A stretch of DNA of 59,267 bases. Origin: Thermoanaerobaculia bacterium. GTDB taxonomy: Bacteria; Acidobacteriota; Thermoanaerobaculia; UBA5066. Of the stretch, positions 4,641 to 55,332 are shown piece after piece. Every line of letters starts with the position of its first letter. Within the stretch, counting starts at the first letter, position 1. The stretch covers positions 1 to 59,267 of the forward strand of contig JBGPDK010000002.1 in the NCBI GenBank assembly GCA_041482235.1, read 5' to 3'. A program made the position numbers and the translations under genes. A model generated the notes under the pieces. The model was not told where the DNA came from and ran no database searches. It saw nothing but the letters and a program-made list of their open reading frames with translations.

Positions 4641-6004
4641 AGAAAGATTCTCTTGGAAAGAAAGAGGGGGCGGCGGCCCCCGCTCGAAAGCGCACCCGCA
4701 GAACCGTACAGTCCGCGGCGCTGTTCGCGCGGGCTCGGCTGCGCATGCCGGGTGGCGTGAGCAGCCCCGTGCGCTCGTTCGCGTCCGTCGGCGGGACGCC
4801 GTTTTTCGTGAAGAAGGGCCGCGGAGCGACGCTGATCGACGCCGACGGGAACCGCTACGTGGACTGGGTCATGTCCTACGGCCCGCTCCTGTTCGGGCAC
4901 GCCCATACCCCGATCTTGTCGGCCGTCCGAAGAGCCCTGCCCCGCGGCACGTCATACGGCGCTCCTACCCGGGGCGAGGTGGAGCTCGCCGAACGCGTCA
5001 CGAAGGCGTTTCCCTCGATGGAGAAGGTGCGGTTCGTGTCCTCCGGCACGGAAGCCGCGATGAGCGCGGTGCGCCTCGCGCGCGGCGCCACGGGCCGCGA
5101 TCTCATCCTGAAGTTCGCGGGCTGCTACCACGGGCACGCCGACTCGTTCCTCGTCTCCGCGGGCTCCGGCGTCGCGACGCTCGGGATTCCCGGCTCGCCC
5201 GGCGTCCCCGGCTCTCTCGCCGGCCTCACGCTCACGGCGCGGTACAACGACCTCGCCTCGGTCGAGGCGCTCTTCGCCGCGCACCCGAAGCGCATCGCGG
5301 TGATCGCGGTCGAGCCGATCGCCGCCAACATGGGGGTCGTGGCGCCCGCGCCGGGGTTTCTCGAGGGCCTCCGCGCGATCGCCCAGCGCGAGGGCGCGCT
5401 GCTGCTTTTCGACGAGGTCATCAGCGGATTCCGCGTCGCGAAGGGCGGCGCGCAGGAGTTGTACGGAGTCCGTTCCGACCTCACCTGCCTCGGAAAGATC
5501 CTCGGGGGCGGACTGCCGGTCGGGGCGTATGGCGGCCGCGCGGACCTCATGGCGAAGGTCGCGCCGGACGGCCCCGTCTATCAGGCCGGGACACTCTCGG
5601 GAAACCCGCTCGCCATGGCGGCGGGGAAAGCGATGCTCGATTCCCTCACGCCCGCCGCTTACGCGAAGCTCGAGAAGACCGCGGTTGCGCTCGAACGCGG
5701 GATGAACGGCGCCGCGAGGAAGCTGGGCGTCGGGAACCGCGTCGTGATCAACCGCGTGGGGTCGATCCTCACGCCGTTCTTCACGAAGGGTCCCGTCACG
5801 AACTTCGACGAGGCGAAGAAGTCCGACCTCGAGGCGTTCAGGCGGTGGTTCCACGCGCTCCTCGGAAACGGCGTCTTCGTCGCGCCGGCGCAGTTCGAGG
5901 CCATGTTCGTCTCGACCGCCCACACGCCCCGCGACGTCGCGGCCACCGTGAAGGCGCACGAGGCCGGCCTCAGGGAGGCCTTCGGTTTGACGGCCGGCGG
6001 GTGA
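4637..6004 (+). CDS. hemL: glutamate-1-semialdehyde 2,1-aminomutase
   Basis: PGGVSSPVRSF, YGPLLFGHAH, FDEVISGFRV and LGKILGGGLPVGAYGG (PLP lysine block). I chose the start at the ATGA overlap with the hemB stop. An ATG at 4628 is the alternative. Confidence 0.88.
   Translation: MKKDSLGKKEGAAAPARKRTRRTVQSAALFARARLRMPGGVSSPVRSFASVGGTPFFVKKGRGATLIDADGNRYVDWVMSYGPLLFGHAHTPILSAVRRALPRGTSYGAPTRGEVELAERVTKAFPSMEKVRFVSSGTEAAMSAVRLARGATGRDLILKFAGCYHGHADSFLVSAGSGVATLGIPGSPGVPGSLAGLTLTARYNDLASVEALFAAHPKRIAVIAVEPIAANMGVVAPAPGFLEGLRAIAQREGALLLFDEVISGFRVAKGGAQELYGVRSDLTCLGKILGGGLPVGAYGGRADLMAKVAPDGPVYQAGTLSGNPLAMAAGKAMLDSLTPAAYAKLEKTAVALERGMNGAARKLGVGNRVVINRVGSILTPFFTKGPVTNFDEAKKSDLEAFRRWFHALLGNGVFVAPAQFEAMFVSTAHTPRDVAATVKAHEAGLREAFGLTAGG
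4639..4670 (+). repeat. degenerate AT-rich repeat copy at the hemB/hemL junction
   Basis: GAAGAAAGATTCTCTTGGAAAGAAAGAGGGGG encodes the non-conserved hemL N-terminal extension KKDSLGKKEG. Confidence 0.5.
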
Positions 6005-7275
6005 GGCCCTCGCTCGACGCCCTCCGGGAGGAAGCGAGGTCGCTCGACCGCGAGGACCCGCTCGCGCGGTTTCGCGAGGAGTTCGTCATCGACGAGGAGG
6101 GCCCTCTCTATCTCGACGGGAACTCCCTCGGGCGCCTCCCGAAGCGCACCGCCGCGCTCGTCGAGCGCGCCGTGAGCGCCGAGTGGGGCTCGCGCCTCGT
6201 GCGCGGCTGGAACGAGGGCTGGATGGACGCGCCGCGCCGCGTGGGCGACAAGCTCGCGCGCGTCCTCGGCGCGGGTCCCGGCGAGGTCGCGGTCTCGGAC
6301 GCGACGAGCGTGAACCTCTTCAAGCTCGCCGTCGCCGCGCTCCGCGCGCGCCCCGAACGAAGGACGATCGTCACGGACGCGCTCAACTTCCCCTCGGACC
6401 TCTATGTCCTCGGCGGCGCGGCGGACCTTCTCGGCGCCGGCCGGCGCGTCGCCGTCGTGCCCGCGCGCGATGGAATCGGGGTCGATGCCGCGGACCTCGA
6501 CGCGGCGATCACCCAGGACACCGCGCTCGTCTCGCTCTCCCACGTGGCATACAAGAGCGGCTTCCTCCACGACATGGAGGCCGTCACGTCACGCGCGCAC
6601 GCCGAGGGCGCGCTCGTCCTGTGGGACGTGAGTCATTCCGCGGGCGCCGTTCCGGTCGAGCTCGAAGCCTCCGGCGCGGACCTCGCGGTGGGATGCACGT
6701 ACAAGTACCTGAACGGCGGGCCGGGCGCCCCCGCGTTCCTCTATGTCCGGCGCTCTCTCCAGCAGGAGCTCGAAAACCCGATCCACGGCTGGTTCTCGCG
6801 GCACGAACCCTTCTCTTTTCACGAGAGCTACGAGCCGGCGCGCGATCTCTCGCGGTTCCTCGTGGGCACGCCGCCGATCCTCTCGCTCGCCGCGGCAGAG
6901 GCGGGAGTGGATCTCGCGCTCGAGGCGGGGATCGACCGCGCGCGGGCGAAGTCGGTCGCGCAGGGGAAGTTCCTCGTGCGTCTCTGGGAGGCTCTTCTCG
7001 AGCCGCACGGCGTCACCCTGAGGTCGCCGCGAGAGGCCGCCCGGCGGGGCTCTCACGTCTCGTTCGGGCATCCCGAGGGCCTCGCCATCGACCGCGCGCT
7101 CATCGAGGAAATGGACGTCATTCCCGATTTCCGGCCGCCGGACGTGATCCGCTTCGGATTCGCGCCTCTCACCACGCGCTTCGAGGACCTCGCAGAAGGA
7201 ATCAGGCGCTTCCGGCGCGTGCTCGACGAGGGGCGCTGGCGGCGTTACACGGACGCGAAACCGGCCGTCACGTGA
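6001..7275 (+). CDS. kynU: kynureninase-like class V PLP-dependent enzyme
   Basis: DREDPLARFREEF...LYLDGNSLG N-terminus, SHVAYKSGF, WDVSHSAGAVP and CTYKYLNGGPGAPAF are typical kynureninase blocks. GTG start in a GTGA overlap with hemL. Confidence 0.65.
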   Translation: MRPSLDALREEARSLDREDPLARFREEFVIDEEGPLYLDGNSLGRLPKRTAALVERAVSAEWGSRLVRGWNEGWMDAPRRVGDKLARVLGAGPGEVAVSDATSVNLFKLAVAALRARPERRTIVTDALNFPSDLYVLGGAADLLGAGRRVAVVPARDGIGVDAADLDAAITQDTALVSLSHVAYKSGFLHDMEAVTSRAHAEGALVLWDVSHSAGAVPVELEASGADLAVGCTYKYLNGGPGAPAFLYVRRSLQQELENPIHGWFSRHEPFSFHESYEPARDLSRFLVGTPPILSLAAAEAGVDLALEAGIDRARAKSVAQGKFLVRLWEALLEPHGVTLRSPREAARRGSHVSFGHPEGLAIDRALIEEMDVIPDFRPPDVIRFGFAPLTTRFEDLAEGIRRFRRVLDEGRWRRYTDAKPAVT

Positions 7276-7436: not shown

Positions 7437-7454
7437 TTGATGCAACTGAATCAA
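7437..7454. promoter_or_regulatory. inverted repeat TTGAT-N8-ATCAA upstream of the cytochrome cluster (candidate operator)
   Basis: TTGATGCAACTGAATCAA is a perfect 5+5 inverted repeat about 110 nt upstream of the mtrC-like ATG. The half-sites are those of CRP/FNR boxes, but the spacer is 8 rather than 4. Confidence 0.25.
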
Positions 7455-7549
7455 AGCGGCGCGTGCGACAGGCCGCTACCCTGAGAAGCGAATGAAAACC
7501 ACCACTTTCACCGAGCGTCGGTTCGTTTAACGTTCCCTTCATTTCCGGC

Positions 7550-7562: not shown

Positions 7563-9677
7563 ATGTCACTGGCATCTCGTACGGTTCTCACATTCGTCGC
7601 TGGTCTCGTCGCGGTGCCCATGACACCGGTGACGCGCACCAGCCCCTCGACCGCGCCCGTCGCCCGCGAGGAGGTTCCCGTCGCGTATAACGCGACGCAG
7701 AAGGAGTTCTTCCTCGCGCCCGACCAGTTCTCGTTCCTGAGGCCCGGTCTGAACCTGAAGATCGCGTCGGTCACGAACTTCGGCCCCGGCCAGAAGCCGG
7801 TCGTCGAGTTCTTCATGACCGACGACCTCAAGCAGCCCCTCGATCGCACCGGCGGCCTCACGCCGGGCGTCGTCTCCCTCCGGTTCATCCCGGCCGTCTG
7901 GGACGCGACGAATAAGTACTACACGAACTACATCGGCTTCAACGCGGACCCCGCTAAGAACGCGAACCCGGGCCGTGACAACACGGGCGCCTACCAGGAG
8001 CTCGAGACCGGCCACTACAAGTACACGTTCGCGAACGCTCTCCCGGCCACGATGGACCCGTCCAAGCCGCATACGCTGGCCGCCATGGGCTCGCGCAACA
8101 CGACGGACTTCGTCGGGAAGCAGTACTACGCGGTCCCGCAGTACGTCGACTTCGTCCCGTCCACGAACGCGGCCGCGACGACGTGGAACGCCTCGACGCT
8201 CGCGAAGTGCAACTCTTGTCACGACCCGCTCGCGCTGCACGGCGGCAACTACCGCGACCTCAAGACGTGCGCGATGTGCCACAACCCGAACAACATGAGG
8301 GACACGATCCCCGCTTCCGGGGGCGAGCCGGCCGAGGACCGCGGCCGGTACAACGGCCAGATCTTCTGGCACCGCATCCACGCGGGGCTGGAAGAGGAGG
8401 TCGTTCCGGGCATGACGTACCCGCAGGACATCCGCAATTGCGAGACCTGCCACGACCCGGCAGCGGCCGGCGGCGCGAGCTGGTACACGAAGCCCTCGAG
8501 AGCGGCCTGCGGCTCGTGCCACAGCGACGTGAACTTCGTCACGGGCGCGAACCACTCGAACGTCGGCCCGGCGGCCGACGGCACCTGCGCCGACTGCCAC
8601 ACCCCGCAGGGCAGCGTCGAGTGGGACGCCGGCATCAAGAACGCCCACGTCGTTCCGCTCCACTCGGCCCAACTCAAGGGCTACACGGCCACGATCCTCT
8701 CGGTTTCGAACGCGGGCCCCGGCAAGAAGATCACCGTCACCTTCAAGCTCCAGAACGGCGACGGCTCCTTCGTCGACCCGGGCGTCTACAAGGTCGCCGC
8801 GAACGGTTCGATCAGCATCAAGCTCGGCGGACCGACGTCCGACTACACGAACGTCGGCATGCTCGCGGCGGGCCAGCCCTTCAGTGAAGCCGTCCAGACC
8901 GCGACGTACAACGCCACGACCGGTATCGCGACGTACACGTTCACGAACGCGATCCCGGCCGCGGCCAAGGGCACGTACACCGTCTCGATCGACACGCGCC
9001 GCTCGGTCACGCTCAATCCGGCCCCCACGAAGGGACCGACGTCGGTCAACGAAGGCGCCCCGAACCAGCCCTTCTCCTTTGCGGTCACGGGGACGACGGT
9101 CGTTCCGCGCCGCACGTCCGTCCTCCTCTCGAAGTGCAACGCCTGCCACCAGGACCTCAAGGTCCTCTTCTCGCACGGCAACCAGCGCATCACGATCGAG
9201 CACTGCGTCATCTGTCACAACCCGAACGGCAGCGACATCGGCCGCCGCGCCGCGGACGGCTCCCAGAACCCGCCCGAGTCCATCGAGTTCGCGCGCATGA
9301 TCCACCGCATCCACACGGGCGAGAATCTGACGCAGGACTACACGATCTTCGGCTTCGGCGGCACCCCCGCGAACTTCAACGACGTCAAGTACCCCGGCGA
9401 CCGCCGGAACTGCCTCGCCTGCCACGTGAACGCGGCTGCCGTCGCGCTTCCGCTCCCGATCACGAACCAGCCGGTCGTCACGGATCGCGACTTCTTCTCG
9501 CCGCGCGGCTCGGCGACCGCCGCCTGCACGGGCTGCCACGACAGCCGCGACGTCGCCGCACATGCGTTCCTCAACACGGCGTTCTTCCCGAAGGACCCGA
9601 CCGCACCCGCCGAGGCCTGCGGAACCTGCCACGGAGCCGGAGCCGAATTCGCCGTCGACAAGGTCCACGCCCGCTAA
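7563..9677 (+). CDS. decahaem c-type cytochrome, MtrC/OmcA-like
   Basis: 10 CXXCH sites (CNSCH, CAMCH, CETCH, CGSCH, CADCH, CNACH, CVICH, CLACH, CTGCH, CGTCH). They are arranged as a haem-free beta-rich region, 5 haems, a second haem-free region and 5 haems, which is the four-domain MtrC/OmcA layout. N-terminal hydrophobic signal and strong RBS. Confidence 0.8.
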   Translation: MSLASRTVLTFVAGLVAVPMTPVTRTSPSTAPVAREEVPVAYNATQKEFFLAPDQFSFLRPGLNLKIASVTNFGPGQKPVVEFFMTDDLKQPLDRTGGLTPGVVSLRFIPAVWDATNKYYTNYIGFNADPAKNANPGRDNTGAYQELETGHYKYTFANALPATMDPSKPHTLAAMGSRNTTDFVGKQYYAVPQYVDFVPSTNAAATTWNASTLAKCNSCHDPLALHGGNYRDLKTCAMCHNPNNMRDTIPASGGEPAEDRGRYNGQIFWHRIHAGLEEEVVPGMTYPQDIRNCETCHDPAAAGGASWYTKPSRAACGSCHSDVNFVTGANHSNVGPAADGTCADCHTPQGSVEWDAGIKNAHVVPLHSAQLKGYTATILSVSNAGPGKKITVTFKLQNGDGSFVDPGVYKVAANGSISIKLGGPTSDYTNVGMLAAGQPFSEAVQTATYNATTGIATYTFTNAIPAAAKGTYTVSIDTRRSVTLNPAPTKGPTSVNEGAPNQPFSFAVTGTTVVPRRTSVLLSKCNACHQDLKVLFSHGNQRITIEHCVICHNPNGSDIGRRAADGSQNPPESIEFARMIHRIHTGENLTQDYTIFGFGGTPANFNDVKYPGDRRNCLACHVNAAAVALPLPITNQPVVTDRDFFSPRGSATAACTGCHDSRDVAAHAFLNTAFFPKDPTAPAEACGTCHGAGAEFAVDKVHAR

Positions 9678-9688
9678 CGAGGCAAGGT

Positions 9689-10600
9689 GTGAAAAAGCTC
9701 TCGCTCGGGGCCCTCGCCGCCGCCGCCCTCGCCGTTCTCACGGCGGGGGCCGCGGTGGCCCAGGCTCCGGCTACCCCGGCTCCTGCGAAGGTGGAAGCCG
9801 GCCCCGCGTGCGCCGACTGCCACGACGAGGCCAAGATCTTCGCGGGCAACCCCCACACGCGCGGCTACCGCGCCGCCCACGGCGGAGCGGCCAGCGGCGC
9901 GGTCTGCGCCACGTGTCACGGCGACGGGACGAAGCACCTGGAGGCTGGAGGGGACAAGACCCTCATCAAGAGCCTTCACGGCCGTTCCGGCGCCGACGCG
10001 TGCGCGACCTGTCACAAGCAGTCCGCGGAGCGCTCGTCTTTCAAGACGGGCGTGCACGCGTCGTCCGAGGCGGTCAACTGCCTCTCCTGCCACTCGATCC
10101 ACAAGTCGAACGCGAAGCAGGCCAGCCTGCTCGTCTCCGAACCGACGACGCTGTGCGCAACCTGCCACCAGGACGCGGCTTCGTCCTTCCGGACGCTTCC
10201 GTACGCGCACAAGCTGAAAGAGGGCGCGCTCTCGTGCGTGTCCTGCCACGACCCGCACGGCCGCTCGGCCAGGCACGCGGTGAAGGAGACGAGGGCCGGC
10301 GAACCCGGCTGCGTCTCCTGCCACGCGGAGGTGCGCGGTCCCTTCGTCTTCCCACACGTCAGCGGTACCACCGGCGACTGCACGAGCTGCCACATTCCGC
10401 ATGGCTCCTCGTATCCCCACCAGCTGCAGCGGGCGACGATCGCCGCGCAGTGCCTCGAATGTCACTCGACGCTCTCGGCGGGGACTCTGGGTTCGCAGCC
10501 GCCTTCTTTCCACAATATCTCGCTGCCGCGCTACCGGAACTGCACGACCTGCCACGTCGCCGTGCACGGTTCCCAGCGCTCGCCGCAGCTCTTCAAGTAA
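9689..10600 (+). CDS. periplasmic decahaem c-type cytochrome, MtrA/DmsE family
   Basis: 303 aa with 10 CXXCH sites, a signal peptide (LAVLTAGAAVAQA), and the size and haem density typical of MtrA/DmsE. GTG start with GAGG 6 nt upstream. Confidence 0.85.
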   Translation: MKKLSLGALAAAALAVLTAGAAVAQAPATPAPAKVEAGPACADCHDEAKIFAGNPHTRGYRAAHGGAASGAVCATCHGDGTKHLEAGGDKTLIKSLHGRSGADACATCHKQSAERSSFKTGVHASSEAVNCLSCHSIHKSNAKQASLLVSEPTTLCATCHQDAASSFRTLPYAHKLKEGALSCVSCHDPHGRSARHAVKETRAGEPGCVSCHAEVRGPFVFPHVSGTTGDCTSCHIPHGSSYPHQLQRATIAAQCLECHSTLSAGTLGSQPPSFHNISLPRYRNCTTCHVAVHGSQRSPQLFK

Positions 10601-10609
10601 GGACGGCCG

Positions 10610-12550
10610 ATGCGAACATTCCGCTCCGCCTTCCTCGTCGCCGCTCTCGCCTCGACCCTCGGTTCGGCCGGCGTCGCCAGTGCCCAGGCGATTCCCTTCG
10701 ACATCGAGGTCGGGTACCGCTTCGTCAGCATCATCGGCAGCGAGGAGTCCTATCGCTCCCAGATCAACGAGCGCGAAGGATTTCTCGTGCGCAGCCTCCA
10801 CATCGGAGCCGACGGCCAGTCTGACGGTTTCCGAGCGATCGACCACCTGCGGATCGACGGCTCCGAGCTCGGAGTCGGCCCCGCCGGCTCCCTGCGTCTC
10901 GACGCGGGCCTCACCGGCGCCTACCGTCTGCGGTTCTCGTACCGGCACCTCGACCAGTTCAGCGCCCTCGCCGGTTTCGCGAATCCGCTCGGCGCCGCGA
11001 TCGGCCAGCAGACGTGGGACCGCACCCGGAACATGGTGGACGTCAACCTCGAGCTTTTGCCGGGGGCCGTCGTCACGCCTCTCGTCGGGTACACCTCGAA
11101 CCTCCTGAACGGTCCGGGCCGCTCGACATTCACCGTGGGCCAGGACGAGTTCCGCCTCGGCCAGGATCTCAAGGTCAATGACCAGGAGTTCCGCGTCGGC
11201 GCCGGCTTCCACGCGGGACCGGTATCCGGCGAATTCCTCCAGGGGTGGCGCCGATACCACGAGATCGAGAAGCTCAGCCTCTTCCCCGGCGCGGGCGCTG
11301 GCAACGATCCGGGCACGGTCCTCGACAAGAACGTGAGCCTCTCGACCCTGACGCGTTCGAGCGTGACCGACGTCAACAGCCCGACGAGTTCGCTGTTCCT
11401 GCGCGGCTTCGCGACCGACGCGGTCCAGCTCATCGGTTTCTACGTCCGCTCGAACGCGGGCGCGGACAGCACGGACCAGGAGAGTCTCAATGGCTCTCTC
11501 GTCTCGTTCGAGCTGTCCCGTTTCTTCACCGGCCTGATCGACAACTCCTCCTCGCGCGTTCAGAACACGGTCTGGCGCGCGGGCGCTCGCCTCGAATGGC
11601 ACGTCCTCGACGGCATCGACGTGACGGGCGGCTACGTGCGCCGCCATGCCTCATGGGACGGCCAGGACCTCGTGAGCAGCCTGTTCACGGGGACGTCGAC
11701 CTTCACGGGCTTCACGCTCGCGGACATCCAGACGATTCTCAACGCCCAGACCTCGGTCGACCGCGTCGAGGACGTGTTCGACGCTCAGGTTTCCGCGAAA
11801 GTCTTCGGGCCTTTTGGCGTCCGTGCGGGCTATTCGCGGATCCAGCAGGACCTCACGGTCACGCAGGACCCGTCGGAGATCATCATCCCCGGCGGCCAGG
11901 GGGGGGACTTCACCCGCGACATCAACCGCCTCGAGGGCGCCCTCACGTTTGCGTCCGGGTCCTTCTTCGCGGCCGGCGAAGCGTCGTGGGACGACGCGAA
12001 CCAGTCGATTCTCCGCACCGACTACCTCACCCGCAATCGCGAGCGCGTGCGCGTCACCTGGAAGGGATTCCCGTGGCTCACGCTCGGCGCGACCGGTCTG
12101 TGGGTCGACCAGAAGAACGACACGCTCGGCATCAACTCGAAGGGCAGCTCGCGGCAGTACACGGGCGATCTCACGCTCATGCCGGTCAAGGTGCTGAGGC
12201 TCCACGCGGGCTACGGCAAGCTGCAGGCCGACAATTCGATTCCGATCCGTGCACCGCAGGACTTCACGGTGCTCGCCTCCGTCAACAGGGAGGACGGCGA
12301 GCTGTGGGAGGCCGGAGTCGGCGTCACGCTCGACAAGAAGGTCGCGATCGACGGATTCTGGACGCGTTTCGCGAACGAGGGCTCCTACCAGTACCGGCTC
12401 TACCGCGGCGGCGCGCGCGTCGATTTCGACGCCACCGCTCACGTTGGACTCATCGGCGAATGGTCGGTCGACCGGTATCTCGACTTTCAGATCGCGACGT
12501 CCAGCTTCCGAGCCAACCGTTATGGCGTGTACCTCAAGTGGCACCCCTGA
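10610..12550 (+). CDS. outer-membrane beta-barrel protein, MtrB/PioB-like by context
   Basis: Signal peptide (ASTLGSAGVASAQA), 646 aa, and alternating hydrophobic/polar beta-strand pattern throughout with an aromatic-rich C-terminus (YGVYLKWHP). No haem sites and no cysteine. It immediately follows the MtrA-like gene. Confidence 0.6.
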   Translation: MRTFRSAFLVAALASTLGSAGVASAQAIPFDIEVGYRFVSIIGSEESYRSQINEREGFLVRSLHIGADGQSDGFRAIDHLRIDGSELGVGPAGSLRLDAGLTGAYRLRFSYRHLDQFSALAGFANPLGAAIGQQTWDRTRNMVDVNLELLPGAVVTPLVGYTSNLLNGPGRSTFTVGQDEFRLGQDLKVNDQEFRVGAGFHAGPVSGEFLQGWRRYHEIEKLSLFPGAGAGNDPGTVLDKNVSLSTLTRSSVTDVNSPTSSLFLRGFATDAVQLIGFYVRSNAGADSTDQESLNGSLVSFELSRFFTGLIDNSSSRVQNTVWRAGARLEWHVLDGIDVTGGYVRRHASWDGQDLVSSLFTGTSTFTGFTLADIQTILNAQTSVDRVEDVFDAQVSAKVFGPFGVRAGYSRIQQDLTVTQDPSEIIIPGGQGGDFTRDINRLEGALTFASGSFFAAGEASWDDANQSILRTDYLTRNRERVRVTWKGFPWLTLGATGLWVDQKNDTLGINSKGSSRQYTGDLTLMPVKVLRLHAGYGKLQADNSIPIRAPQDFTVLASVNREDGELWEAGVGVTLDKKVAIDGFWTRFANEGSYQYRLYRGGARVDFDATAHVGLIGEWSVDRYLDFQIATSSFRANRYGVYLKWHP

Positions 12551-12585
12551 ACCGGACGCAGAGTCGAAGAAGAAAGGGTCATGAC

Positions 12586-12915
12586 ATGAACAAGGTACGT
12601 CTTGGAGTCGTCTCGCTCGCCTCGGCCGTCGCGCTCGTCGCCGGTTCAGCTCTGGCGACCATGGACTCGCAGAAGCAGATGGGTGCGACCTATCCCAACG
12701 CCCCCAAGGCGAAGTGCGGCACCTGTCACACGAAGGCGATGCCCAAGAAGGGCGAGGCGGACGTCAACGCTTACGGCAAGGCTCTCGGGGCGACGAAAAA
12801 GGACACCACGTACGACTTCGCGAAGATCGAGAAGCTGGACAGCGACGGCGACGGCGTCTCGAACCTCGACGAGATCAAGAAAGGGACGAACCCGGGCGAT
12901 CCCGCGTCGAAGTAG
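12586..12915 (+). CDS. small secreted monohaem c-type cytochrome with a C-terminal EF-hand-like calcium loop
   Basis: Signal peptide, a single CGTCH, and DSDGDGVSNLDE, which matches the 12-residue EF-hand/TSP3-type loop pattern. Confidence 0.7.
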   Translation: MNKVRLGVVSLASAVALVAGSALATMDSQKQMGATYPNAPKAKCGTCHTKAMPKKGEADVNAYGKALGATKKDTTYDFAKIEKLDSDGDGVSNLDEIKKGTNPGDPASK

Positions 12916-12924
12916 GATCGGGGG

Positions 12925-14172
12925 ATGAGGTTCGGGGGCGTTCTCGCCGCGTTTCTGCTCACGGCCGCCCCCCTTCAGGCGGCGGCGCCGCCCCCGAAGC
13001 CTCCCGCCAACGAAGATTGTCTCGCCTGCCACGAAGACCCGTCCGCGAAACGCGCCAACGGGTCTCCCGTTCTCGTCGACAGGGCGGCCTTCGCCGCCTC
13101 CGTCCACGGAGCCGCCGGCGCGTCCTGCGTCGACTGCCACCAGGACCTCGCGAAAACTGCCGATTTTCCCCACCCCGAAAAGCTCGCTTCCGTGGACTGC
13201 GCGTCCTGTCACGCGTCGGAAGTCGCGGACTACGAGAAGAGCGTTCACGCCGCCGAACGCGGGAAATCGAAGGCCAGCAAGGCTGCGTGGTGCACGGACT
13301 GCCACGGCATCCACGACATCCGGCCGTCGAAGGACCCCGCGTCGCGCACGAACCACTTCAACCTTCCGACGACCTGCCTGAAATGCCACGGGAATCTCGC
13401 GGTCGTGCCGGGCGCTGGCGGACCTCCCGTGAATCAGCCGGCACTCTTCCACGACAGCATCCACGGCCGCGCGCTCGAGAAGAGCGGTCTGAAGTTCGCC
13501 CCGAATTGCTCGAATTGCCACGGGGCGCATGCGATCCGCAATCCGAAGACTGACGCCGAGAGCTCGGTCTACCGGACGAAGATCCCCGCGACCTGCGGCA
13601 ACTGTCACGAGAAGATCCTCGCGGAGTACAGCGACTCGATCCACGGGACCCAGCTTGCGAAGGGCAACCCGAAGGTGCCCGTCTGCTCCGACTGTCACAC
13701 GGCGCACGCCATCACGGCTGTCACCGATGTGCGCCGCCTCGCGATTCTCCACCAGTGCGGGGGCTGTCACGAGTCCTCGCTCGCGACCTATCGCGATACC
13801 TATCACGGCCAGGTGAACGCGATGGGCTTCTCCCGCATCGCGACCTGCGCCGACTGCCACACGGCGCACCAGATCCATCCGGCCGGCGACCCGCGGGCCT
13901 CGGTCGCGCCCGCGAATCGCCTGGGCACGTGCCAGAAATGTCATGCCGGGGCGACAGCGAACTTCTCCCGTTACGACCCGCACGCGAACACCCACGACAA
14001 GGGACGGAGCCGCCTGCTGTGGGCTACGGCCCTCTTCATGAAGATCCTCCTCGCCGGAGTCTTCGCGTTTTTCGGAATTCACACGGTTCTCTGGTTCCCC
14101 CGGTCTCTGAAGGCGCGCGCCGCCGAGGGCCGAGGCGGCCGCAGAGCGGGTAAGGGACACGGAGCGCCATGA
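12925..14172 (+). CDS. 11-haem c-type cytochrome with a C-terminal membrane anchor
   Basis: Signal peptide, 11 CXXCH sites and one C-terminal TM helix (LLWATALFMKILLAGVFAFFGIHTVLWF). ATGA overlap with the following b-type cytochrome gene. Confidence 0.8.
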   Translation: MRFGGVLAAFLLTAAPLQAAAPPPKPPANEDCLACHEDPSAKRANGSPVLVDRAAFAASVHGAAGASCVDCHQDLAKTADFPHPEKLASVDCASCHASEVADYEKSVHAAERGKSKASKAAWCTDCHGIHDIRPSKDPASRTNHFNLPTTCLKCHGNLAVVPGAGGPPVNQPALFHDSIHGRALEKSGLKFAPNCSNCHGAHAIRNPKTDAESSVYRTKIPATCGNCHEKILAEYSDSIHGTQLAKGNPKVPVCSDCHTAHAITAVTDVRRLAILHQCGGCHESSLATYRDTYHGQVNAMGFSRIATCADCHTAHQIHPAGDPRASVAPANRLGTCQKCHAGATANFSRYDPHANTHDKGRSRLLWATALFMKILLAGVFAFFGIHTVLWFPRSLKARAAEGRGGRRAGKGHGAP

Positions 14173-15011
14173 TGACGGAGAAGGCCCCCGCGGCGGACGG
14201 CAGAGTCTGGGTCCGGCGCTTCGACCGGTTCGACCGCTCGCTGCACATTCTCCTGATGGCGAGCTTTCTGGGTCTCTCGCTGACCGGCGTGCCGCTGCTG
14301 TTTTCGGACAGGCCCTGGGCCGCGGGCCTCTCGCGTCTCTTCGGCGGGTTCCGGGCGGCGGCGACTCTGCACCGCGTCTTCGCCGCCGGGATGCTGCTGT
14401 GCTTCGGAAGCCATCTCGCGCGCCTCGCGAAGCGGCTCTTCGGAGACAAGGAGTACGAGATTCTGTGGGGGCCGTCCTCCCTCGTTCCGCAGCCACGGGA
14501 CTTCATGGAGCTCGTGCACCACGTACGCTGGTTCCTCGGCCGGGGTGCGCGACCGCGTTTCGACCGCTTCACCTACTGGGAGAAATTCGATTACTGGGCC
14601 GTGTTCTGGGGCATGGGGATCATCGGGGGCTCCGGACTGATTCTCTGGGCCCCGAAGTTCTGGGCGCGCTTCCTGCCGGGGGACCTGTTCAACATCGCGC
14701 TCCTCATCCACGGCGAGGAGGCGCTTCTCGCGGTCGTTTTCATCTTCACGATTCACTTCTTCAACGGCCACCTGAGGCCCGAAAAGTTCCCGATGGACAC
14801 GGTCATCTTCACGGGCGTTCTGCCGCTCGAGGAGCTGAAGCACGAGCGGCCCTCCGAGTACGATCGGCTCGTGGCGGAGGGCGGCGTCGAGCGCCTCGCG
14901 TCTCCGGCGCCGACCGCCGATCGCGTCTTCAAGAGCCGGATCATCGGGACGATCGCGGTTTCCCTGGGCCTCCTCCTCGTTGCGTTTACACTCATCGCTC
15001 TGTTGAGCTGA
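14169..15011 (+). CDS. membrane b-type cytochrome (FdnI/HydC-like Ni/Fe-hydrogenase b-type cytochrome family)
   Basis: Four or five TM helices with conserved His residues ([52 protein letters not shown]). Coupled to the 11-haem gene. Confidence 0.7.
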
Positions 15012-15033
15012 ACCGGCGTCGAGGAGGAGTCAC

Positions 15034-16488
15034 ATGAGCGCAGGAACCGGCGGCCGTCTGGCCGGGTGGCTGAGGCCGATCTTCTACCTGGGGCGCAACC
15101 GCGCCTCGCAGCTCGGCGTCGGACTCACGACGAGCGCCGCCGTCACGCTGATCGGCTTCTGGCTCTTCGAGGTCACGAACTCCAAACCCGTCCATCCGTA
15201 TTCGGGCATCCTGTTCATCCTCGTTCTCCCGTTCGTCTTCCTCATGGGACTCGTCCTCATCCCGATCGGGATTCTCTTCGAGCGCCGCCGGCTGCGCCGG
15301 GCGGGTCAACTTCCCACGGTTTACCCGAAAATCGACCTGGCCGATTCGAACCTCCGGCACGCGGGCATCCTCATCGCCGGCCTGACGGTGGCAAACGTCG
15401 TGATCCTGAGCCTCTCGGCCTACGTGGGCGTCGAGTACATGGACTCCGCGCGTTTCTGCGGGCTCACGTGCCACACGGTCATGGCGCCCGAGTTCACGGC
15501 ATACCTCGACTCGCCTCATTCGCGCGTCGCCTGCACGAGCTGTCACATCGGCCCGGGAGCCCCGTGGGTCGTGAAGGCGAAGGTGGACGGCGTGAGGCAG
15601 GTCATCGCGGTCACGTTCGGCACGTACGCGCGTCCGATCCCGTCTCCCGTGCACACGCTGCGTCCCGCCCGGGCGACCTGCGAACAGTGCCACTGGCCGC
15701 AGAAATTCCAGGGCGACAAGCTCAAGATCATCTCCAAGTTCGGCGACGACGAGAAGAACACGCCGACGAAAACGGTCCTCCTCCTGAAGCTGGGAGGTCG
15801 CATGGGGTCCCGGGCCACAGGGATCCACGGCCGGCACCTCGACGACAAGGAGCGGATCTCGTACCTCACCTCGAACCCGCGCCGCGAGGTCATTTCCTCG
15901 GTGACCTACCTCGGCGACGACGGAAAGCCGGTGGAGTTCGCGTCGACCGAGGTGAAGGCGACACGCGAGGAGGCACGCACGGGCGAGAGACGGACGATGG
16001 ACTGCATCGACTGCCACAACCGGCCCACGCACGCGTTCCAGCTCCCGGAACGCGCGGTGAACGAGGCCATGGCGGCCGACCGCATCAGCCCCGAGCTGCC
16101 GTTCATCCACAAGAAATCGATCGAGCTCCTGAAGATCGCCTATCCGACGCGCGAGGCCGCTTTCGAGCGATTGGAGAAGGACCTCACGGAGTTCTACAAG
16201 ACCAGGTATCCCGACGTGTACCAGACCCGCCGTGCGTCCGTCGAAACCGCGGCACGCGAGGTCCAGCGGATTTACGGGCGAAACGTGTGGCCCGAGATGA
16301 GGATCACCTGGGGAACGCACCCGAACCACATCGGCCACGAGGACTTCCTCGGGTGCTTTCGCTGCCACGACGGCAGCCACAAAGCGGCCGACGGGCGCGT
16401 CATCTCGGCCGAATGCGACGCCTGCCACGCCCTGCTCGCGCAGGACGAGACGAATCCGAAAGTGCTCGCGGATCTCGGCATCCGTTGA
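15034..16488 (+). CDS. membrane-anchored multihaem cytochrome, NapC/NirT-like
   Basis: Three N-terminal TM helices, then FCGLTCH (CX3CH) plus five CXXCH sites (CTSCH, CEQCH, CIDCH, CFRCH, CDACH). The [14 protein letters not shown] block is typical of this family. Confidence 0.75.
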
Positions 16489-16554
16489 CCGGTCCTCTTT
16501 GAAACAGGTGCATCATGGGAGAGGGAGGGGTCAAGACCCCACCCTGTAGGTACC

Positions 16555-17493
16555 GTGGACCTCACGACCTCGTACCTGGGGCTCAAGCTGGCCCATCCGC
16601 TCGTGCCGGGCGCGTCTCCTCTCTCCAGGGAGCTCGATTCGGTCCTTCGCCTCGAGGATGCCGGCGCGCCCGCGATCGTGCTGCACTCGCTCTTCGAAGA
16701 GCAGATCTCGGCCGATCCCCTCCGCACGCAGCGAACGCCCACGGACCCGGTCGGCTACCTCGAGCACCTGAACCGGGTCAAAGAGTCCGTCCACGTTCCG
16801 GTCATCGCGTCGCTCAACGGCACGACCGACGAGGGCTGGACCTCGTTCGCGAGTCTCGTCGAGCAGGCGGGGGCCGACGCGCTCGAGCTGAACATCTATC
16901 ACCTCTCGACGAGCCTCTGGACGAGCGGCGCGACGCTCGAGGCCTACACGCTCGACACGGTTCGCGCCGTGCGCTCTCTCGTCTCGATCCCGGTCGCGGT
17001 GAAGATCTTCCCCAATTTCTCCTCGATCGCGTCGCTCGCGCGGCAGTTCGAGGAGATCGGCGCGAACGGGCTCGTCCTCTTCAACCGCAGCTACCAGCCG
17101 GACATCGACCTCGAGACGCTGGAGGTCGTGCCCGATCTGCGCCTCTCGAGCTCGAGCGAGCTGCTGCCGCGTCTCTACTGGATCACGACGCTCTTCGGCC
17201 GCGTGGACCTGTCGTTGGCCGTGACGGGCGGCGTCCACACGGGAGCGGACGCCCTGAAGGCGATTCTCGCCGGGGCGGACGTCGTTCAGATGGTCTCGGC
17301 TCTTTTCCAGGGCGGTCCCGGCCACCTGAACGTCGTGCGCAAGGAGGTGGAGCAGTGGCTCGAGTGCCACGGCCACTCCTCCCTCAGCGAGGTTCGGGGC
17401 TGCATGAGCCTCGAGCGGCGGGAGGATGCCAGCTCGTCCACCCGCGCCGGGTTCGTGCAGGTTCTCCAGCGGGGAATGCGCCCGGCACCTTAG
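16555..17493 (+). CDS. dihydroorotate dehydrogenase-like protein (class 1 DHOD/DHPD fold)
   Basis: TSYLGLKLAHPLVPGASP N-terminus, IASLNG, ELNIY and GGVHTGADALKAILAGA are TIM-barrel flavoenzyme blocks. GTG start. Confidence 0.75.
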   Translation: MDLTTSYLGLKLAHPLVPGASPLSRELDSVLRLEDAGAPAIVLHSLFEEQISADPLRTQRTPTDPVGYLEHLNRVKESVHVPVIASLNGTTDEGWTSFASLVEQAGADALELNIYHLSTSLWTSGATLEAYTLDTVRAVRSLVSIPVAVKIFPNFSSIASLARQFEEIGANGLVLFNRSYQPDIDLETLEVVPDLRLSSSSELLPRLYWITTLFGRVDLSLAVTGGVHTGADALKAILAGADVVQMVSALFQGGPGHLNVVRKEVEQWLECHGHSSLSEVRGCMSLERREDASSSTRAGFVQVLQRGMRPAP

Positions 17494-17529
17494 CGCCCCT
17501 ACCCAGGAGAGAGGCTTTGGAGCGGGAGG

Positions 17530-18195
17530 TCAGATCCAGCCGCGCCGGAACGCGAGCGCCACGGCCTCGACCTGGCTGTGGACCTCGAGCTTGCGAAGGA
17601 CGTTCTGGATGTGATTCCTCACGGTCGCGTGCGAGAGGTTCAGCTTCGCCGCGATGTTGAGCGCCGCGTAGCCGTTCGACAGCAACATCACGATCTCCCG
17701 CTCGCGCGAGCTGAGCGGAGAGACGGAGATCGGCGGGTCGATGGGAGGGAGGCCGGCCGGCTCGCGCACGGCCGAGCGCAGTGACGAAATGAGGGTGTCG
17801 AGGCTGGGCCCCTCGGTCTCGAGGAAGTGCATGAGCACCGCGAACGACGGACCCGCGGCGGGCAGCGGAATGGCGCGGACGATGAGCTTGACCGGCGTGG
17901 AAGCCCCTTTTTTCTTGACGTCGAGGAGGTAGGGCCTCACGTCGTCGCCCGCGATGGCCGAGACGACGACGGGGCACTCCTGCGTGCAGTACAGGTTGCC
18001 GAACACATCGCGCCCAGCGAGGACGTCGAAACACATCTTGCCGAGCACTTCGTCGGCGGACCAGCCCAGCGCTTTTGTCGCGCCTTCGTTCCAGTAGACG
18101 ATGCGGTCGTGGCGGTCCATGCCATACGCCGGGGCCTTCGAGTCGGCGATGAGCTCGAGCGCGTCCCGGACGGGCAGGGAGAGGGGAGAGGGCAT
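17530..18195 (-). CDS. PAS domain / LuxR-type HTH transcriptional regulator
   Basis: N-terminal PAS-like region (IVYWNEGATKALGWSADEVLGK) and a C-terminal LuxR HTH (LSSREREIVMLLSNGYAALNIAAKLNLSHATVRNHIQNVLRKL). Confidence 0.8.
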   Translation of the reverse strand: MPSPLSLPVRDALELIADSKAPAYGMDRHDRIVYWNEGATKALGWSADEVLGKMCFDVLAGRDVFGNLYCTQECPVVVSAIAGDDVRPYLLDVKKKGASTPVKLIVRAIPLPAAGPSFAVLMHFLETEGPSLDTLISSLRSAVREPAGLPPIDPPISVSPLSSREREIVMLLSNGYAALNIAAKLNLSHATVRNHIQNVLRKLEVHSQVEAVALAFRRGWI

Positions 18196-18222
18196 GGCGC
18201 CTATTCTGTCAGAAAAACGCGC

Positions 18223-20049
18223 TCAGGAGTTGAGGTCCCGCGCGGGATCGAATTGCTCGAACAGGCGGGCGAGCAGGAATACTCCCCCTGCCGCTTCGGC
18301 CAGGACCGGCAAGGCCGCGAGAATCGCAGCGATGGGCAGCGACCAGAAGCCCAGCGGCCTGAAGGCGAAAAAGATCAGCGGCGCGGCCAGAAGTGCCGCC
18401 GGGACGAGGGCGAGGGCGAGAACGAGCGACGTGCCGAGAAACGAGAGCACCCGGAGACCCGACTGCTCGAGGCCCACGGCGCGCCTTCTGCCCGCCGGAA
18501 ACCAGGCCGGAAAAGCGAGGACAGACGCGTTCTGAACCACGAGGGCGAGCGCGACGAGGGCGGGGAGGAAAACGGCCATCGTCAGGGCGACGGGGACGAG
18601 CACTTCGAACCGCAGGAACGGGGCCACGGTGCCGGGCGCCGCGACGGCTGTCCCGAGAAACGCTCCACGCACCAGGCGTCCGGCGCCGATCGCGAGGGCA
18701 ATCGCGATTCCTCCCCAGCCGTAGAGAACCGCGACCACGGCCGGTGCGGCGAGCTCGGCGAGGACGAGACGCTCTGCCGGGAGCGGCCAGGTTCTGAGGA
18801 CCGCCGCGTACTCGAGGTCTCCGCGCAGGTCGATCCGGAAGCCGAGGGTCGTGACGAGGGCGAGGACCGCGGTCACGCTCAGGCACGTCGCGCTTCCGAT
18901 CGCGGCCCCGGCATCGGCCGTCGGCGCCGTCAGGAGGGCGGACGCTACGAAGCACGCAGCCGCGACAGACCCCACGATCACGGTCTGGCGGGCGAGGCTC
19001 GCTCGTTTCCAGGCGAGGAGATTTTTCCACACGATCGCGAGCTCGGGCCGCCCGCGTGGCGCCAGAGCGAACGGCACGATGCCGCGGCGCCTCTCGGAGG
19101 GCGGGGCCTCGAGCCGGCCCGACTCGCGGCGGGCGCGCTGGGCAGCGCGCCGCGAGGCGTGGGCGAGCGTGGCCTCCTCGAACCGGCCGGCCGTGAGCGC
19201 CACACACGCGTAGAGGAGGGCCAGGAGGCCGAGGGCGGGCGGGAGGGCGAGGGAGAACGCGCGGGCGTTGGGGGCCAGAAGCGGAGCGAGGATCCAACGG
19301 AACGGGGTGAGAAGAGTGAACGGGGCGGTGCCGAAAGGCCCCGTTCGGAGCGCCGCGACGAACGTGCCCAGAGACACGACCGACCCGCTCTTGAGGCCGG
19401 ATGTTCCCGCGAGGAGGCCGGTCCCGAGACTCCAGAGGAGCATTCCGAGAGCGCCCACGGTGAGCGCGAAGGCCGCGGTCTTCGTGGCGCGGCGGGAGGC
19501 CGGCGGAAGCTCGTTCCATCGTGCCTTCGTGAAGGCGAGCGCGAGGTTATGAAGGTTGACCGCCGTCAGCAGCAGCCAGAGTCCGGCGCCGGTCAGAATC
19601 GCCGTGCCGCCCCCGCTGCGGCCCGACACGACGGTGATGACCAGCGCACTGAACAGGACGGGAAGCTGCGCCTTCAGGAGGGCGTAATGGAGGAGGGCGC
19701 GGCGCGGAACGGGGGCCGGGAAGAGAAACTGGATCTCGGCCTCCGACAGCCCGAGCGACGGCTGGCCCCTTCGGAAGAGCCAGGTCAGGAGCGCGACGAC
19801 GGCCAGCGCGGCCGCGCCGGCGAGCATCAGGAGCTCGCCCGCGTGCGCCGGCAGGCGCGGGGGCGCCGGCGGGCCTCCGGACCGGCTGCCCGGCCTCGTG
19901 AAGAGCATGGCGAAGTACGCGGCGCCGAGGAGGAATCCGACCATGTACCGCGGCTCGCGGAGGCGGCCGACCTTCTTCCGCGCGGCGTTCTTCAGCATCC
20001 GCCCGGCGGCGAACAGGACGAGGGAGAAGGGCGCGGACGGCGCGCTCAC
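18223..20049 (-). CDS. polytopic membrane protein, putative ABC exporter permease
   Basis: 608 aa with at least 10 hydrophobic segments. Overlaps the upstream ABC ATPase gene by 4 nt. Confidence 0.6.
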   Translation of the reverse strand: MSAPSAPFSLVLFAAGRMLKNAARKKVGRLREPRYMVGFLLGAAYFAMLFTRPGSRSGGPPAPPRLPAHAGELLMLAGAAALAVVALLTWLFRRGQPSLGLSEAEIQFLFPAPVPRRALLHYALLKAQLPVLFSALVITVVSGRSGGGTAILTGAGLWLLLTAVNLHNLALAFTKARWNELPPASRRATKTAAFALTVGALGMLLWSLGTGLLAGTSGLKSGSVVSLGTFVAALRTGPFGTAPFTLLTPFRWILAPLLAPNARAFSLALPPALGLLALLYACVALTAGRFEEATLAHASRRAAQRARRESGRLEAPPSERRRGIVPFALAPRGRPELAIVWKNLLAWKRASLARQTVIVGSVAAACFVASALLTAPTADAGAAIGSATCLSVTAVLALVTTLGFRIDLRGDLEYAAVLRTWPLPAERLVLAELAAPAVVAVLYGWGGIAIALAIGAGRLVRGAFLGTAVAAPGTVAPFLRFEVLVPVALTMAVFLPALVALALVVQNASVLAFPAWFPAGRRRAVGLEQSGLRVLSFLGTSLVLALALVPAALLAAPLIFFAFRPLGFWSLPIAAILAALPVLAEAAGGVFLLARLFEQFDPARDLNS

Positions 20050-20762: not shown

Positions 20763-20822
20763 CGGGCCGGAGTGTACGGAAAAGGGCGAAGTCCGCCCTC
20801 GCTGACGCTACACTTCCGATGC

Positions 20823-54034: not shown

Positions 54035-54432
54035 GCTCGCGGCGCGACTTTCTGGGTGAGCTCTGGCGCTGGACGGGAGGCGCGCTCCTTTTCGCCTCGG
54101 CGCTGATCCTGCATCGCGTCCTGCGCGCGGCCGCGCCGGCTCCGCGCGAGACGACCCTCTCGCCCGAGGCGGTCTCGCGGGCGATCGCGGAGGGCGGAGC
54201 GGAGCTGGGGGGTCTCTTCGTCACCGGCCCGCCGTCGGCGCCGACGGCTCTCTCGCTCACTTGTACGCACCTCGGCTGCCGCGTGCGGCCGGCGTCCTCC
54301 GGCGGTTTTGCCTGTCCGTGTCACGGCAGCCGCTTCGCCGTCGACGGCAAACGAACTTTTGGACCGGCCCGGGCGCCCCTTGCGCGCGCTTCTCTCGAGC
54401 GGCGTGGAGCCTCGTGGGTGACGCGGCTCTGA
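54031..54432 (+). CDS. Rieske [2Fe-2S] protein with a TAT-like N-terminus
   Basis: SRRDFLG twin-arginine-like start plus the CTHLGC ... CPCHGS cluster boxes. Confidence 0.85.
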
Positions 54433-55301: not shown

Positions 55302-55332
55302 ACGGTACACGTCTTGCTGTTCGGAGGGCCGA

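Follow-up and report, generated by a model that had tools for sequence, protein, structure and literature searches.

How could a soil or sediment bacterium of the Thermoanaerobaculia, a class of the Acidobacteriota, pass electrons from its quinol pool to acceptors beyond the outer membrane? The question is raised by a block of seven genes in a 59,267-nucleotide stretch of Thermoanaerobaculia DNA (contig JBGPDK010000002.1, hereafter the window). The seven open reading frames (ORFs), here called g1 to g7, run in the same direction on the + strand from 7563 to 16488. The first three encode relatives of MtrC, MtrA and (by predicted fold) MtrB, the parts of the Shewanella electron conduit. The fourth encodes a small cytochrome, and the last three encode what look like two inner-membrane modules for quinol oxidation. 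Judging from homology and conserved synteny, we consider it likely that the block is one operon encoding a complete pathway for outward extracellular electron transfer (EET).

The genes are closely packed. Going from g1 to g7, the intergenic gaps are 11, 9, 35, 9, -4 and 22 nt, the negative value being an ATGA overlap between g5 and g6. A terminator scan found terminator-like sites no more often than chance allows, with none in excess inside the block; together with the tight packing and the ATGA overlap, this argues for a single operon. Counted in the translations, CXXCH haem-binding motifs number 10, 10, 0, 1, 11, 0 and 5 in g1 to g7, a sum of 37, to which one CX3CH is added. This enrichment is not due to chance, since the 37 motifs fall within ~2,940 amino acids (aa) while the all-frame ORFs outside the block (54,637 aa) hold 11, and 10 of these 11 belong to one other cytochrome gene. 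Clear AGGAGG Shine-Dalgarno sequences lie 5' of g1 and g7, and weaker purine-rich stretches precede the other starts. By hydropathy, the N-termini of g2, g3, g4 and g5 each hold a hydrophobic stretch that fits a signal peptide. A preliminary description, made from the letters of the window, had listed the same seven tightly spaced co-directional genes, at the same coordinates, with the same haem total and with g5 translationally coupled to g6; our recount returns exactly these figures.

Components of the block

The first gene, g1 (7563-9677; all seven genes are on the + strand), encodes a 704-aa protein in which two haem-free stretches (residues 1-215 and 343-524) alternate with two pentahaem blocks (CXXCH at 216, 236, 293, 316 and 342, then at 525, 548, 617, 655 and 686). 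By its family matches, it is a decahaem protein of the OmcA/MtrC family. In particular, the model TIGR03507 (OmcA/MtrC) scores 414 bits against a cut-off of 209.3, with residues 78-702 covering positions 7-672 of the 672 in the model, and PF22113 (MtrC/MtrF domain II/IV) scores 163.5 bits against a cut-off of 30 (E 4.5e-48). The closest solved structure is Shewanella MtrF (3pmq, E 1.1e-38, residues 142-702). A lipobox cysteine is a trait of Shewanella MtrC and OmcA that lies outside the definition of the family by hidden Markov model. Neither a cysteine nor a lipobox occurs in the N-terminal 45 residues of g1, or in those of 38 orthologues with an intact start, and the N-terminus MSLVSRTALTLLAGLVAVP is kept across the clade of genomes that carry all seven genes (the seven-gene clade). 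In four close relatives (L003, L004, L005 and L024), residues ~61-360 of g1 are just 45-53% identical, with 70-86% identity in its C-terminal half and 80-90% in the neighbouring genes. This half-by-half divergence hints that one part of the surface cytochrome evolves fast or has undergone mosaic exchange.

The second gene, g2 (9689-10600, GTG start), encodes a secreted-type protein of 303 aa with a signal peptide and ten CXXCH, and it ends 9 nt before the barrel gene g3. It matches TIGR03508 (DmsE/MtrA) with 184.4 bits (cut-off 192.2) over positions 4-256 of the 258 in the model. Its closest solved structure is chain A of 6r2q (E 8.5e-25), an entry titled 'Structure of the Mtr complex'; we take this chain to be MtrA (the molecule name deposited for it is unrelated). 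On these matches, g2 is an MtrA/DmsE-like periplasmic decahaem cytochrome. A conduit of the Geobacter Pcc/Ext type was also considered and is ruled out by the full-length MtrC/MtrF homologue g1 and by the scores of g2 itself, 184 bits on the DmsE model against 138 bits on that of GSU2203.

The third gene, g3 (10610-12550), encodes a 646-aa protein with a signal peptide, no cysteine and no CXXCH, and here the identity rests on fold. An AlphaFold2 (AF2) model built from a 42-sequence alignment (pLDDT 81.3, pTM 0.74) has 26 strands by DSSP. In a Foldseek search of the Protein Data Bank (PDB), its top match is 6r2q_B (E 3.2e-14, TM-score 0.64/0.64, 649-residue target), which we take to be MtrB. 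The next matches are 22-strand TonB-dependent receptors with TM-scores of 0.49 or less. Both the predicted strand count and the length of g3 thus match the MtrB chain of the Shewanella Mtr complex, and the model describes an outer-membrane barrel that is MtrB-like. At the sequence level, g3 alone had no Pfam or NCBIfam match at E<=0.01 and no PDB match by phmmer, and its 42-sequence profile matched no PDB chain, those of the Mtr complex included. A profile search of 1.84 billion representatives gave 1,023 family members. Because four of 24 distant full-length members match PF11854 (MtrB_PioB), if weakly (best E 2.1e-5), a remote chain of homology from g3 to MtrB/PioB is plausible.

The preliminary description had read these three proteins as MtrC/OmcA-like, as MtrA-type and as a possible large barrel. 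The first reading is borne out by the TIGR03507 score and the MtrF match, and the second by a TIGR03508 score near the cut-off and by chain A of 6r2q. The third agrees with the 26 strands of the model and with the MtrB chain as its best fold match.

Downstream of the conduit genes, the most distinctive product is that of g7 (15034-16488), a 484-aa protein with three transmembrane segments by hydropathy (27-47, 52-85 and 107-134). Right after the third lies an atypical CX3CH motif (CGLTCH at 142), and five CXXCH follow at 167, 216, 324, 441 and 461. ImcH homologues have been defined by three N-terminal transmembrane segments, an atypical CX3CH beside the transmembrane domain and 5-9 CX2CH motifs (Zhong & Shi, PMC6295460). 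Table S3 of that work gives 13-35, 45-67 and 100-122 as an example of the transmembrane ranges, and places the motifs of Geobacter sulfurreducens ImcH (GSU3259) at 132, 156, 205, 311, 428, 448 and 486, and those of a six-motif homologue, 'bacterium HR10', at 143, 167, 216, 323, 439 and 459. GSU3259 shares with g7 the three N-terminal transmembrane segments, the CX3CH after the third, a NapC/NirT/NrfH-like region and the first six haem spacings. That is, the motifs of g7 follow those of GSU3259 at a near-constant offset of +10 to +13 residues, and only the last haem, the seventh and C-terminal one, is absent, as it is in the listed homologues from Geothrix, Anaeromyxobacter and many Acidobacteria. 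The cluster members listed for ten g7 homologues share no accession with Table S3.

The NapC/NirT model PF03264 matches residues 112-198 of g7 (41.9 bits, cut-off 24.1), and the sole solved relative is the quinol dehydrogenase NrfH (2j7a_C, E 4.6e-6) over residues 112-223, which hold the third transmembrane segment and the first three haem motifs. CymA was weighed as a candidate and rejected: TIGR02161, which describes the CymA/NapC-NirT tetrahaem type of ~190 aa with one transmembrane helix and four haems, gives 19.3 bits against a cut-off of 310.6, whereas g7 has 484 aa, three transmembrane segments and six haem motifs. Read from its motifs, the architecture of g7 is that of ImcH rather than CymA. 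The NapC/NirT likeness and the three transmembrane segments of the preliminary description therefore stand (PF03264, NrfH), but its analogy with CymA does not.

The other candidate entry point is a pair of genes. The first, g5 (12925-14172), encodes a 415-aa periplasmic cytochrome with 11 CXXCH and one C-terminal hydrophobic segment (362-392 by hydropathy) as its membrane anchor. This anchor bears His386, within a motif, FFG[IV]HT, that is invariant across all g5 orthologues. The second, g6 (14169-15011), encodes 280 aa with no CXXCH and about five transmembrane helices; hydropathy gives three segments (24-46, 173-202 and 253-280) and the AF2 model (pLDDT 84.6) adds two. The sole significant PDB fold match of this model is FdnI of E. 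coli formate dehydrogenase-N (1kqf_C, E 7.2e-6, TM-score 0.77, rmsd 4.0 Å), and six histidines (His26, 68, 82, 181, 196 and 201) are invariant in 33 sequences. PF01292 (Ni_hydr_CYTB) scores 25 bits on g6, below its cut-off of 30.1, and is present in most g6 homologues. We read g6 as an FdnI-type dihaem cytochrome b that would carry the quinol site of the unit.

Geobacter CbcL (GSU0274), MtoC and MtrH combine the same elements as g5 and g6: a multihaem domain, a transmembrane helix bearing a histidine and an FdnI-type dihaem cytochrome b, with histidines in a 1-1-1-0-2 pattern over six helices. His386 of g5 and His26, His68, His181 and His196 of g6 fit this b-haem pattern, as does the FdnI-like fold. 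CbcL is a single polypeptide (nine haems plus a six-helix dihaem b), while g5 and g6 are two genes, split like CbcBA but with the c-type gene first, and with 11 haems against nine in CbcL and seven in CbcA.

A clade of related loci (the sister clade) links the two forms. There, a unit with 19 haems and a cytochrome b is 38% identical to g5 and ~50% to g6; its last 11 haems track the g5 spacing within 1-3 residues, and a histidine in the motif G-T-H-T-A-L-W sits at the position equivalent to His386. Because this orthologous unit is a single fused protein, the most fitting description of g5/g6 is a bc-type quinol oxidoreductase that is CbcL-like and split. The pairing of a cytochrome b with a multihaem protein, which the preliminary description had likened to CbcL, is upheld by the FdnI fold, the histidine pattern and the fused orthologues.

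The sister-clade loci that we examined (L026, L040, L046, L060, L063, L067 and L069, at ~12,000-21,900 in each) form larger clusters with an order of their own: mtrC-A-B, 1-3 tandem small genes, a ~740-aa fused protein that joins 12 haems to a cytochrome b, an ImcH-type gene and the 19-haem unit. The latter has ~930-990 aa where it is fused and carries an internal duplication of eight haems; in L069 it is split. The 12-haem unit is a second fused unit beside the 19-haem one. Independent gene calls and Pfam Ni_hydr_CYTB matches confirm this on one sister-clade contig, on which the second unit is split into proteins of 595 aa and 297 aa. Further cytochrome b-like genes lie downstream in L069, L026, L042 and L046, as a Rieske/cytochrome b pair in L069. 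Genes for ImcH and CbcL homologues also keep company elsewhere. Adjacent or near-adjacent locus tags are listed for several Desulfuromonadales and Syntrophus metagenome-assembled genomes (MAGs) and for Geoalkalibacter (A2X79_01185/01190, A2X92_08560/08565; PMC6295460, Tables S2 and S3), so that the linkage of imcH with cbcL recurs outside the Acidobacteriota.

Between the conduit and these modules lies g4 (12586-12915), which encodes a small, putatively secreted monohaem c-type cytochrome of 109 aa with one CXXCH and a signal-peptide-like N-terminus. Its mature part has ~85 residues and ends in a TSP3-like, Asp-rich motif. Two models match weakly, TSP3_bac and, in its N-terminal part, that of the GEGP dihaem protein, and searches of Pfam, NCBIfam and the PDB gave no solved or otherwise informative relative. 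In the sister clade, the place after the barrel gene is taken by one to three small genes of a similar kind, and the ORFs checked in these loci carry one CXXCH each. To call g4 a candidate periplasmic shuttle is only a guess.

Distribution, control and surroundings

One genome per GTDB species was scanned for related loci, which gave 68, nearly all labelled Thermoanaerobaculia or Acidobacteriota; the names of barrel homologues likewise come from Thermoanaerobaculia/Acidobacteriota MAGs. The genome of the cultured Thermoanaerobaculum aquaticum (T. aquaticum) was not among the 68 loci returned. Synteny was read by tblastn with the seven proteins in the loci with enough flanking sequence, 50 for the trio g1-g3 and 47 for g6 and g7. 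Of the 50 loci, 48 carry g1-like and g2-like genes ahead of the barrel gene, and the complete g1-g7 order is found in ~20 loci (each a species-level genome), where barrel identity is at least 58%. In 28 of the 47 loci, the 10 kb that follow the barrel gene hold genes like g6 and g7, and four more have a g7-like gene elsewhere in the flank, usually upstream and divergent. The linkage of g6/g7 to the barrel comes in varied arrangements: in the same order, with extra fused modules, or inverted. Because the arrangements differ among distant clades, the association may be functional and not merely inherited.

Within the seven-gene clade, both flanks are syntenic, with hemD, a hemL-like gene and the kynureninase gene upstream, and a dihydroorotate (DHO)-dehydrogenase-like gene, a PAS-LuxR regulator and an ABC exporter downstream, which argues for vertical inheritance in this clade. 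A recent horizontal acquisition is not argued, as the GC content of the block (0.655-0.689) is barely under that of the flanks (~0.70) and both flanks are syntenic across the clade. Sequence identity follows cellular location, being highest at the inner membrane (70-96% in g7) and lowest in the surface cytochrome (53-82% in g1). A like gradient has been reported for EET proteins of Geobacter and Shewanella (PMC12977616).

The region upstream of g1 resembles a promoter that would serve the entire block under the control of an activator or a repressor. An 18-bp perfect palindrome, TTGATGCAACTGAATCAA, lies at 7437-7454 (either strand), ~126 nt upstream of the g1 ATG. It has a single copy in the window, where no match is expected by chance (0), and 14 related loci each keep one perfectly conserved copy, at -126 to -141, amid intergenic DNA that diverges. 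The half-sites resemble those of FNR/CRP-type operators (TTGAT/ATCAA), with a spacing of N8 instead. The palindrome is probably a transcription-factor operator or promoter of the operon. An alignment of 15 upstream sequences also shows a TACNCT box ~22 nt downstream of the palindrome, an AAGGAGG ribosome-binding site and a second inverted repeat at 7512-7525 (either strand), between the palindrome and the ribosome-binding site. The columns of this repeat are invariant or nearly so (consensus CGAAC-N4-GTTCG, window copy CGAGC-GTCG-GTTCG), and it is a candidate operator or hairpin of the 5' untranslated region. Conservation of both the palindrome and the ribosome-binding site suggests one regulated start for the block. 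A sigma-70 scan returned no promoter-like sites, and an Rfam scan of the whole window gave no match.

A gene for a PAS-LuxR (GerE) regulator lies at 17530-18195 on the - strand, convergent with the operon (Pfam: GerE 9.6e-17, PAS 1.5e-7). Wherever the contig is long enough, the loci of the seven-gene clade carry this gene 0.5-5 kb after the g7 homologue, and it is not found beside the sister-clade clusters. As a regulator of the operon, its product is a candidate only.

Several other neighbours deserve mention. The DHO-dehydrogenase-family/FMN-dehydrogenase-like gene (16555-17493, same strand) starts 66 nt after g7; it is present there in nearly every long-enough seven-gene-clade locus and not beside the sister-clade clusters. 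Upstream, at 1073-6004, are haem-biosynthesis genes, namely a hemC-like gene (porphobilinogen deaminase), hemD and a class-III aminotransferase gene read as hemL-like. Only the kynureninase gene (5845-7275) separates them from the operon, and the position of hemD, the hemL-like gene and usually the kynureninase gene is kept across the seven-gene clade. A second respiratory module lies ~38 kb away, at 52700-57084. It comprises a sigma-54 activator gene (~52700-54034), a gene for a PetB-type cytochrome b (54261-55301; PF00033, 9.3e-11) and an ORF with 10 CXXCH (55129-57084), and it can be likened to the Geobacter Cbc-type bc complexes, themselves sigma-54 regulated.

The proposed route and its alternatives

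Taken together, these parts outline a possible route. Menaquinol would be oxidised at the inner membrane by the ImcH-type g7 or by the CbcL-like g5/g6. The electrons would cross the periplasm via g4, possibly, or straight from the long haem chain of g5. They would then enter the MtrA-like wire g2, threaded through the predicted 26-strand barrel g3, and leave through the MtrC-like g1, whose acceptors would be Fe(III)/Mn(IV) minerals, humics or other substances outside the cell. If the analogy with G. sulfurreducens holds, in which ImcH is required above about -0.1 V and CbcL below it, g7 and g5/g6 would serve acceptors of different redox potential. An outward direction is favoured because the MtrC homologue is conserved and because T. 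aquaticum, a cultured member of the class, reduces Fe(III) and Mn(IV) oxides, with such loci proposed as its only extracellular cytochromes (bioRxiv 10.1101/2020.10.01.322446). The preliminary description had already suggested that the locus could encode the whole path, with a shuttle and two alternative points of entry. Its assignments of function to the single proteins are largely supported by family and fold matches, as set out above, and the route itself is one that we infer from homology and synteny.

A number of points weigh against this outward pathway. Because the lipobox that anchors Shewanella MtrC is absent, the surface location of g1 is putative. The score of g2 falls slightly short of the DmsE-family cut-off, and g3 has no direct sequence match to MtrB/PioB but a weak transitive link only. 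The comparisons with G. sulfurreducens proteins go through published data and architecture, using motif positions for g7 and GSU3259, and histidine pattern and haem counts for g5/g6 and CbcL (GSU0274). The lineage is uncultured and known here from MAG relatives. Reverse flow is possible in conduits of the MtrCAB type, and homologues of CbcL/MtoC/MtrH also occur in Fe(II) oxidisers (PMC6295460). Finally, 15 of the 47 loci lack any g6/g7-like gene in the 10 kb around their trio, and the families of g6 (at least 5,898 matches) and g7 (at least 8,000) are far larger than that of the barrel (194). The last two observations also indicate that the inner-membrane modules are non-obligate partners of the conduit.

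The same two observations bear on the alternative that survives best, an unlikely one, in which two separate units happen to be neighbours: a conduit (g1-g3, perhaps with g4) and a widespread ImcH/Cbc respiratory module (g5-g7) whose electrons go to other periplasmic reductases and not specifically to the conduit. In its favour, the barrel family is both smaller and less conserved than those of g6 and g7, roughly a third of the related loci keep the trio with g6/g7 missing from its vicinity, and several Desulfuromonadales have imcH beside cbcL in the absence of mtr genes, to judge from their locus tags (PMC6295460, Tables S2 and S3). On the other hand, the seven genes share a strand, with gaps of 9-35 nt and no internal terminator signal above chance. 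Their order is kept in ~20 species-level genomes and the linkage recurs, rearranged, in distant clades. Moreover, neither within the block nor next to it did Pfam and NCBIfam scans find a gene for another terminal reductase.

A second alternative keeps the operon whole and reverses the flow. Mtr conduits are reversible in Shewanella, and electrons supplied by Fe(II), by a cathodic mineral or by a partner cell could run inward to reduce the quinone pool, as in lithotrophy or electron uptake of the MtoAB-MtoC or PioAB type. The proposed bidirectional role of CbcL/MtoC/MtrH homologues in Fe(II) oxidisers fits this direction, as does the haem spacing of g5, which resembles the MtoC-type pattern (PMC6295460, Table S2). 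Still, the known oxidiser clusters (mtoA-mtoB-mtoD-mtoC) list no MtrC-type gene, which is kept here in 48 of the 50 loci, and ImcH has so far been implicated just in quinol oxidation (PMC6295460). In addition, T. aquaticum is an anaerobic reducer of Fe(III)/Mn(IV), according to the preprint cited above. We regard inward flow as a little less probable than two separate units, and hold to the outward pathway.

The last alternative departs from that pathway in the terminal acceptor alone, which would be soluble or non-mineral (DMSO-type substrates, organic disulfides, humic/flavin shuttles or interspecies transfer) and not a metal oxide. It can be put down as improbable, the least so favoured of the three: the DmsE-family match of g2 (184.4 bits, below the 192.2 cut-off), the several acceptors served by Shewanella Mtr/Dms paralogues and the Acidobacteriota MAGs whose expressed mtrF-like genes have been linked to cable-bacteria interactions speak for it, but the Pfam and NCBIfam scans found no DmsAB-type catalytic subunit encoded in the block, and g1 is a full-length protein of the MtrC/MtrF type.

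Known relatives and significance

How much of this layout is new? The order of the first three genes is that of Shewanella MtrCAB/MtrDEF (6r2q; MtrF 3pmq), i.e. surface decahaem, periplasmic decahaem, barrel. Shewanella differs in the sequence of its barrel, in the lipobox of MtrC and in encoding its tetrahaem CymA elsewhere, whereas the locus described here has ImcH-type and CbcL-type modules inside the operon of an acidobacterial host with ~70% GC. Closer in this respect is the mtr cluster of Rhodoferax ferrireducens, with two cymA genes, mtrH (a CbcL homologue) and mtrABC (PMC6295460), and 'passenger' quinol dehydrogenases and periplasmic shuttles have been described with mtrCAB across groups (Baker et al. 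2022, PMC8805035). Such clusters likewise join a conduit to more than one inner-membrane quinol oxidase, including the CbcL-type MtrH, and often to a small periplasmic cytochrome. In Rhodoferax, however, the partners are CymA and a fused CbcL homologue; here they are ImcH-type and a split, translationally coupled CbcL-like unit with 11 haems. The sole Acidobacteriota group of the Baker survey, Group 5 (Acidobacteriia/Bryobacterales), has no quinol oxidoreductase near mtrCAB (PMC8805035). As for ImcH, its gene is monocistronic in Geobacter and part of a seven-gene operon here, and a survey from 2018 lists no mtrAB adjoining any imcH (PMC6295460).

Loci of the same kind have been noted in the class before. 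MtrABC genes are reported in Acidobacteriota MAGs, including a T. aquaticum cMAG (Kato et al. 2022, PMC9671151), and for T. aquaticum and MAGs of the class there is a note of loci in which genes for cytochromes and a beta-barrel are syntenic (Flieder et al., bioRxiv 10.1101/2020.10.01.322446). Both concern extracellular and periplasmic multihaem cytochromes with a beta-barrel, proposed for Fe/Mn oxide reduction. As far as these two texts are accessible, they do not resolve the MtrC/A/B-like, ImcH-type and CbcL-type parts, nor describe the seven-gene operon and the palindrome. Among open-access papers and bioRxiv preprints on Thermoanaerobaculia MtrC, ImcH or EET, we found none that dissects the operon, and none that describes ImcH-type and split CbcL-type modules within one MtrCAB-type operon. 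The earlier view that no description of the combined layout was known was thus too broad, given the published Rhodoferax cluster of a conduit with several quinol oxidases, and holds for the ImcH-type/split-CbcL combination within this literature. Every part is of a known type. What is new is the pair of ImcH-type and split CbcL-type partners, a barrel that escapes the MtrB/PioB model, an MtrC homologue with no lipobox and an operator-like palindrome specific to the clade.

Thermoanaerobaculia are abundant in soils, peat, sediments and wastewater, and the case for their role in iron, manganese and humic turnover rests mostly on generic counts of multihaem proteins. The locus offers instead a concrete and widely conserved set of genes that joins a Shewanella-type outer conduit with Geobacter-type inner-membrane quinol oxidases. 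If functional, it would give a better marker set for extracellular respiration in Acidobacteriota, as the barrel slips past the model for MtrB/PioB and the ImcH homologue goes under no more specific name than 'NapC/NirT family cytochrome c' in public records. It would also mean that modules of the ImcH and CbcL types can be dedicated to an Mtr-type conduit; in Geobacter, redundancy masks their partners. Lastly, a compact operon of ~9 kb could be transferred whole to a heterologous host as a trial of a complete pathway.

We would go one step further, tentatively and at somewhat less than an even chance, and propose that the block is a minimal, self-contained extracellular-respiration pathway of Thermoanaerobaculia, and the first case of ImcH-type and CbcL-type oxidases genetically wired to a defined conduit. 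This conduit would consist of an MtrC with no lipobox, MtrA and a sequence-divergent MtrB-like barrel, a dedicated monohaem shuttle would lead to it, and a palindromic operator specific to the clade would switch the operon. Were this true, the operon would be a tractable system in which to learn which periplasmic and outer-membrane partners ImcH and CbcL serve.

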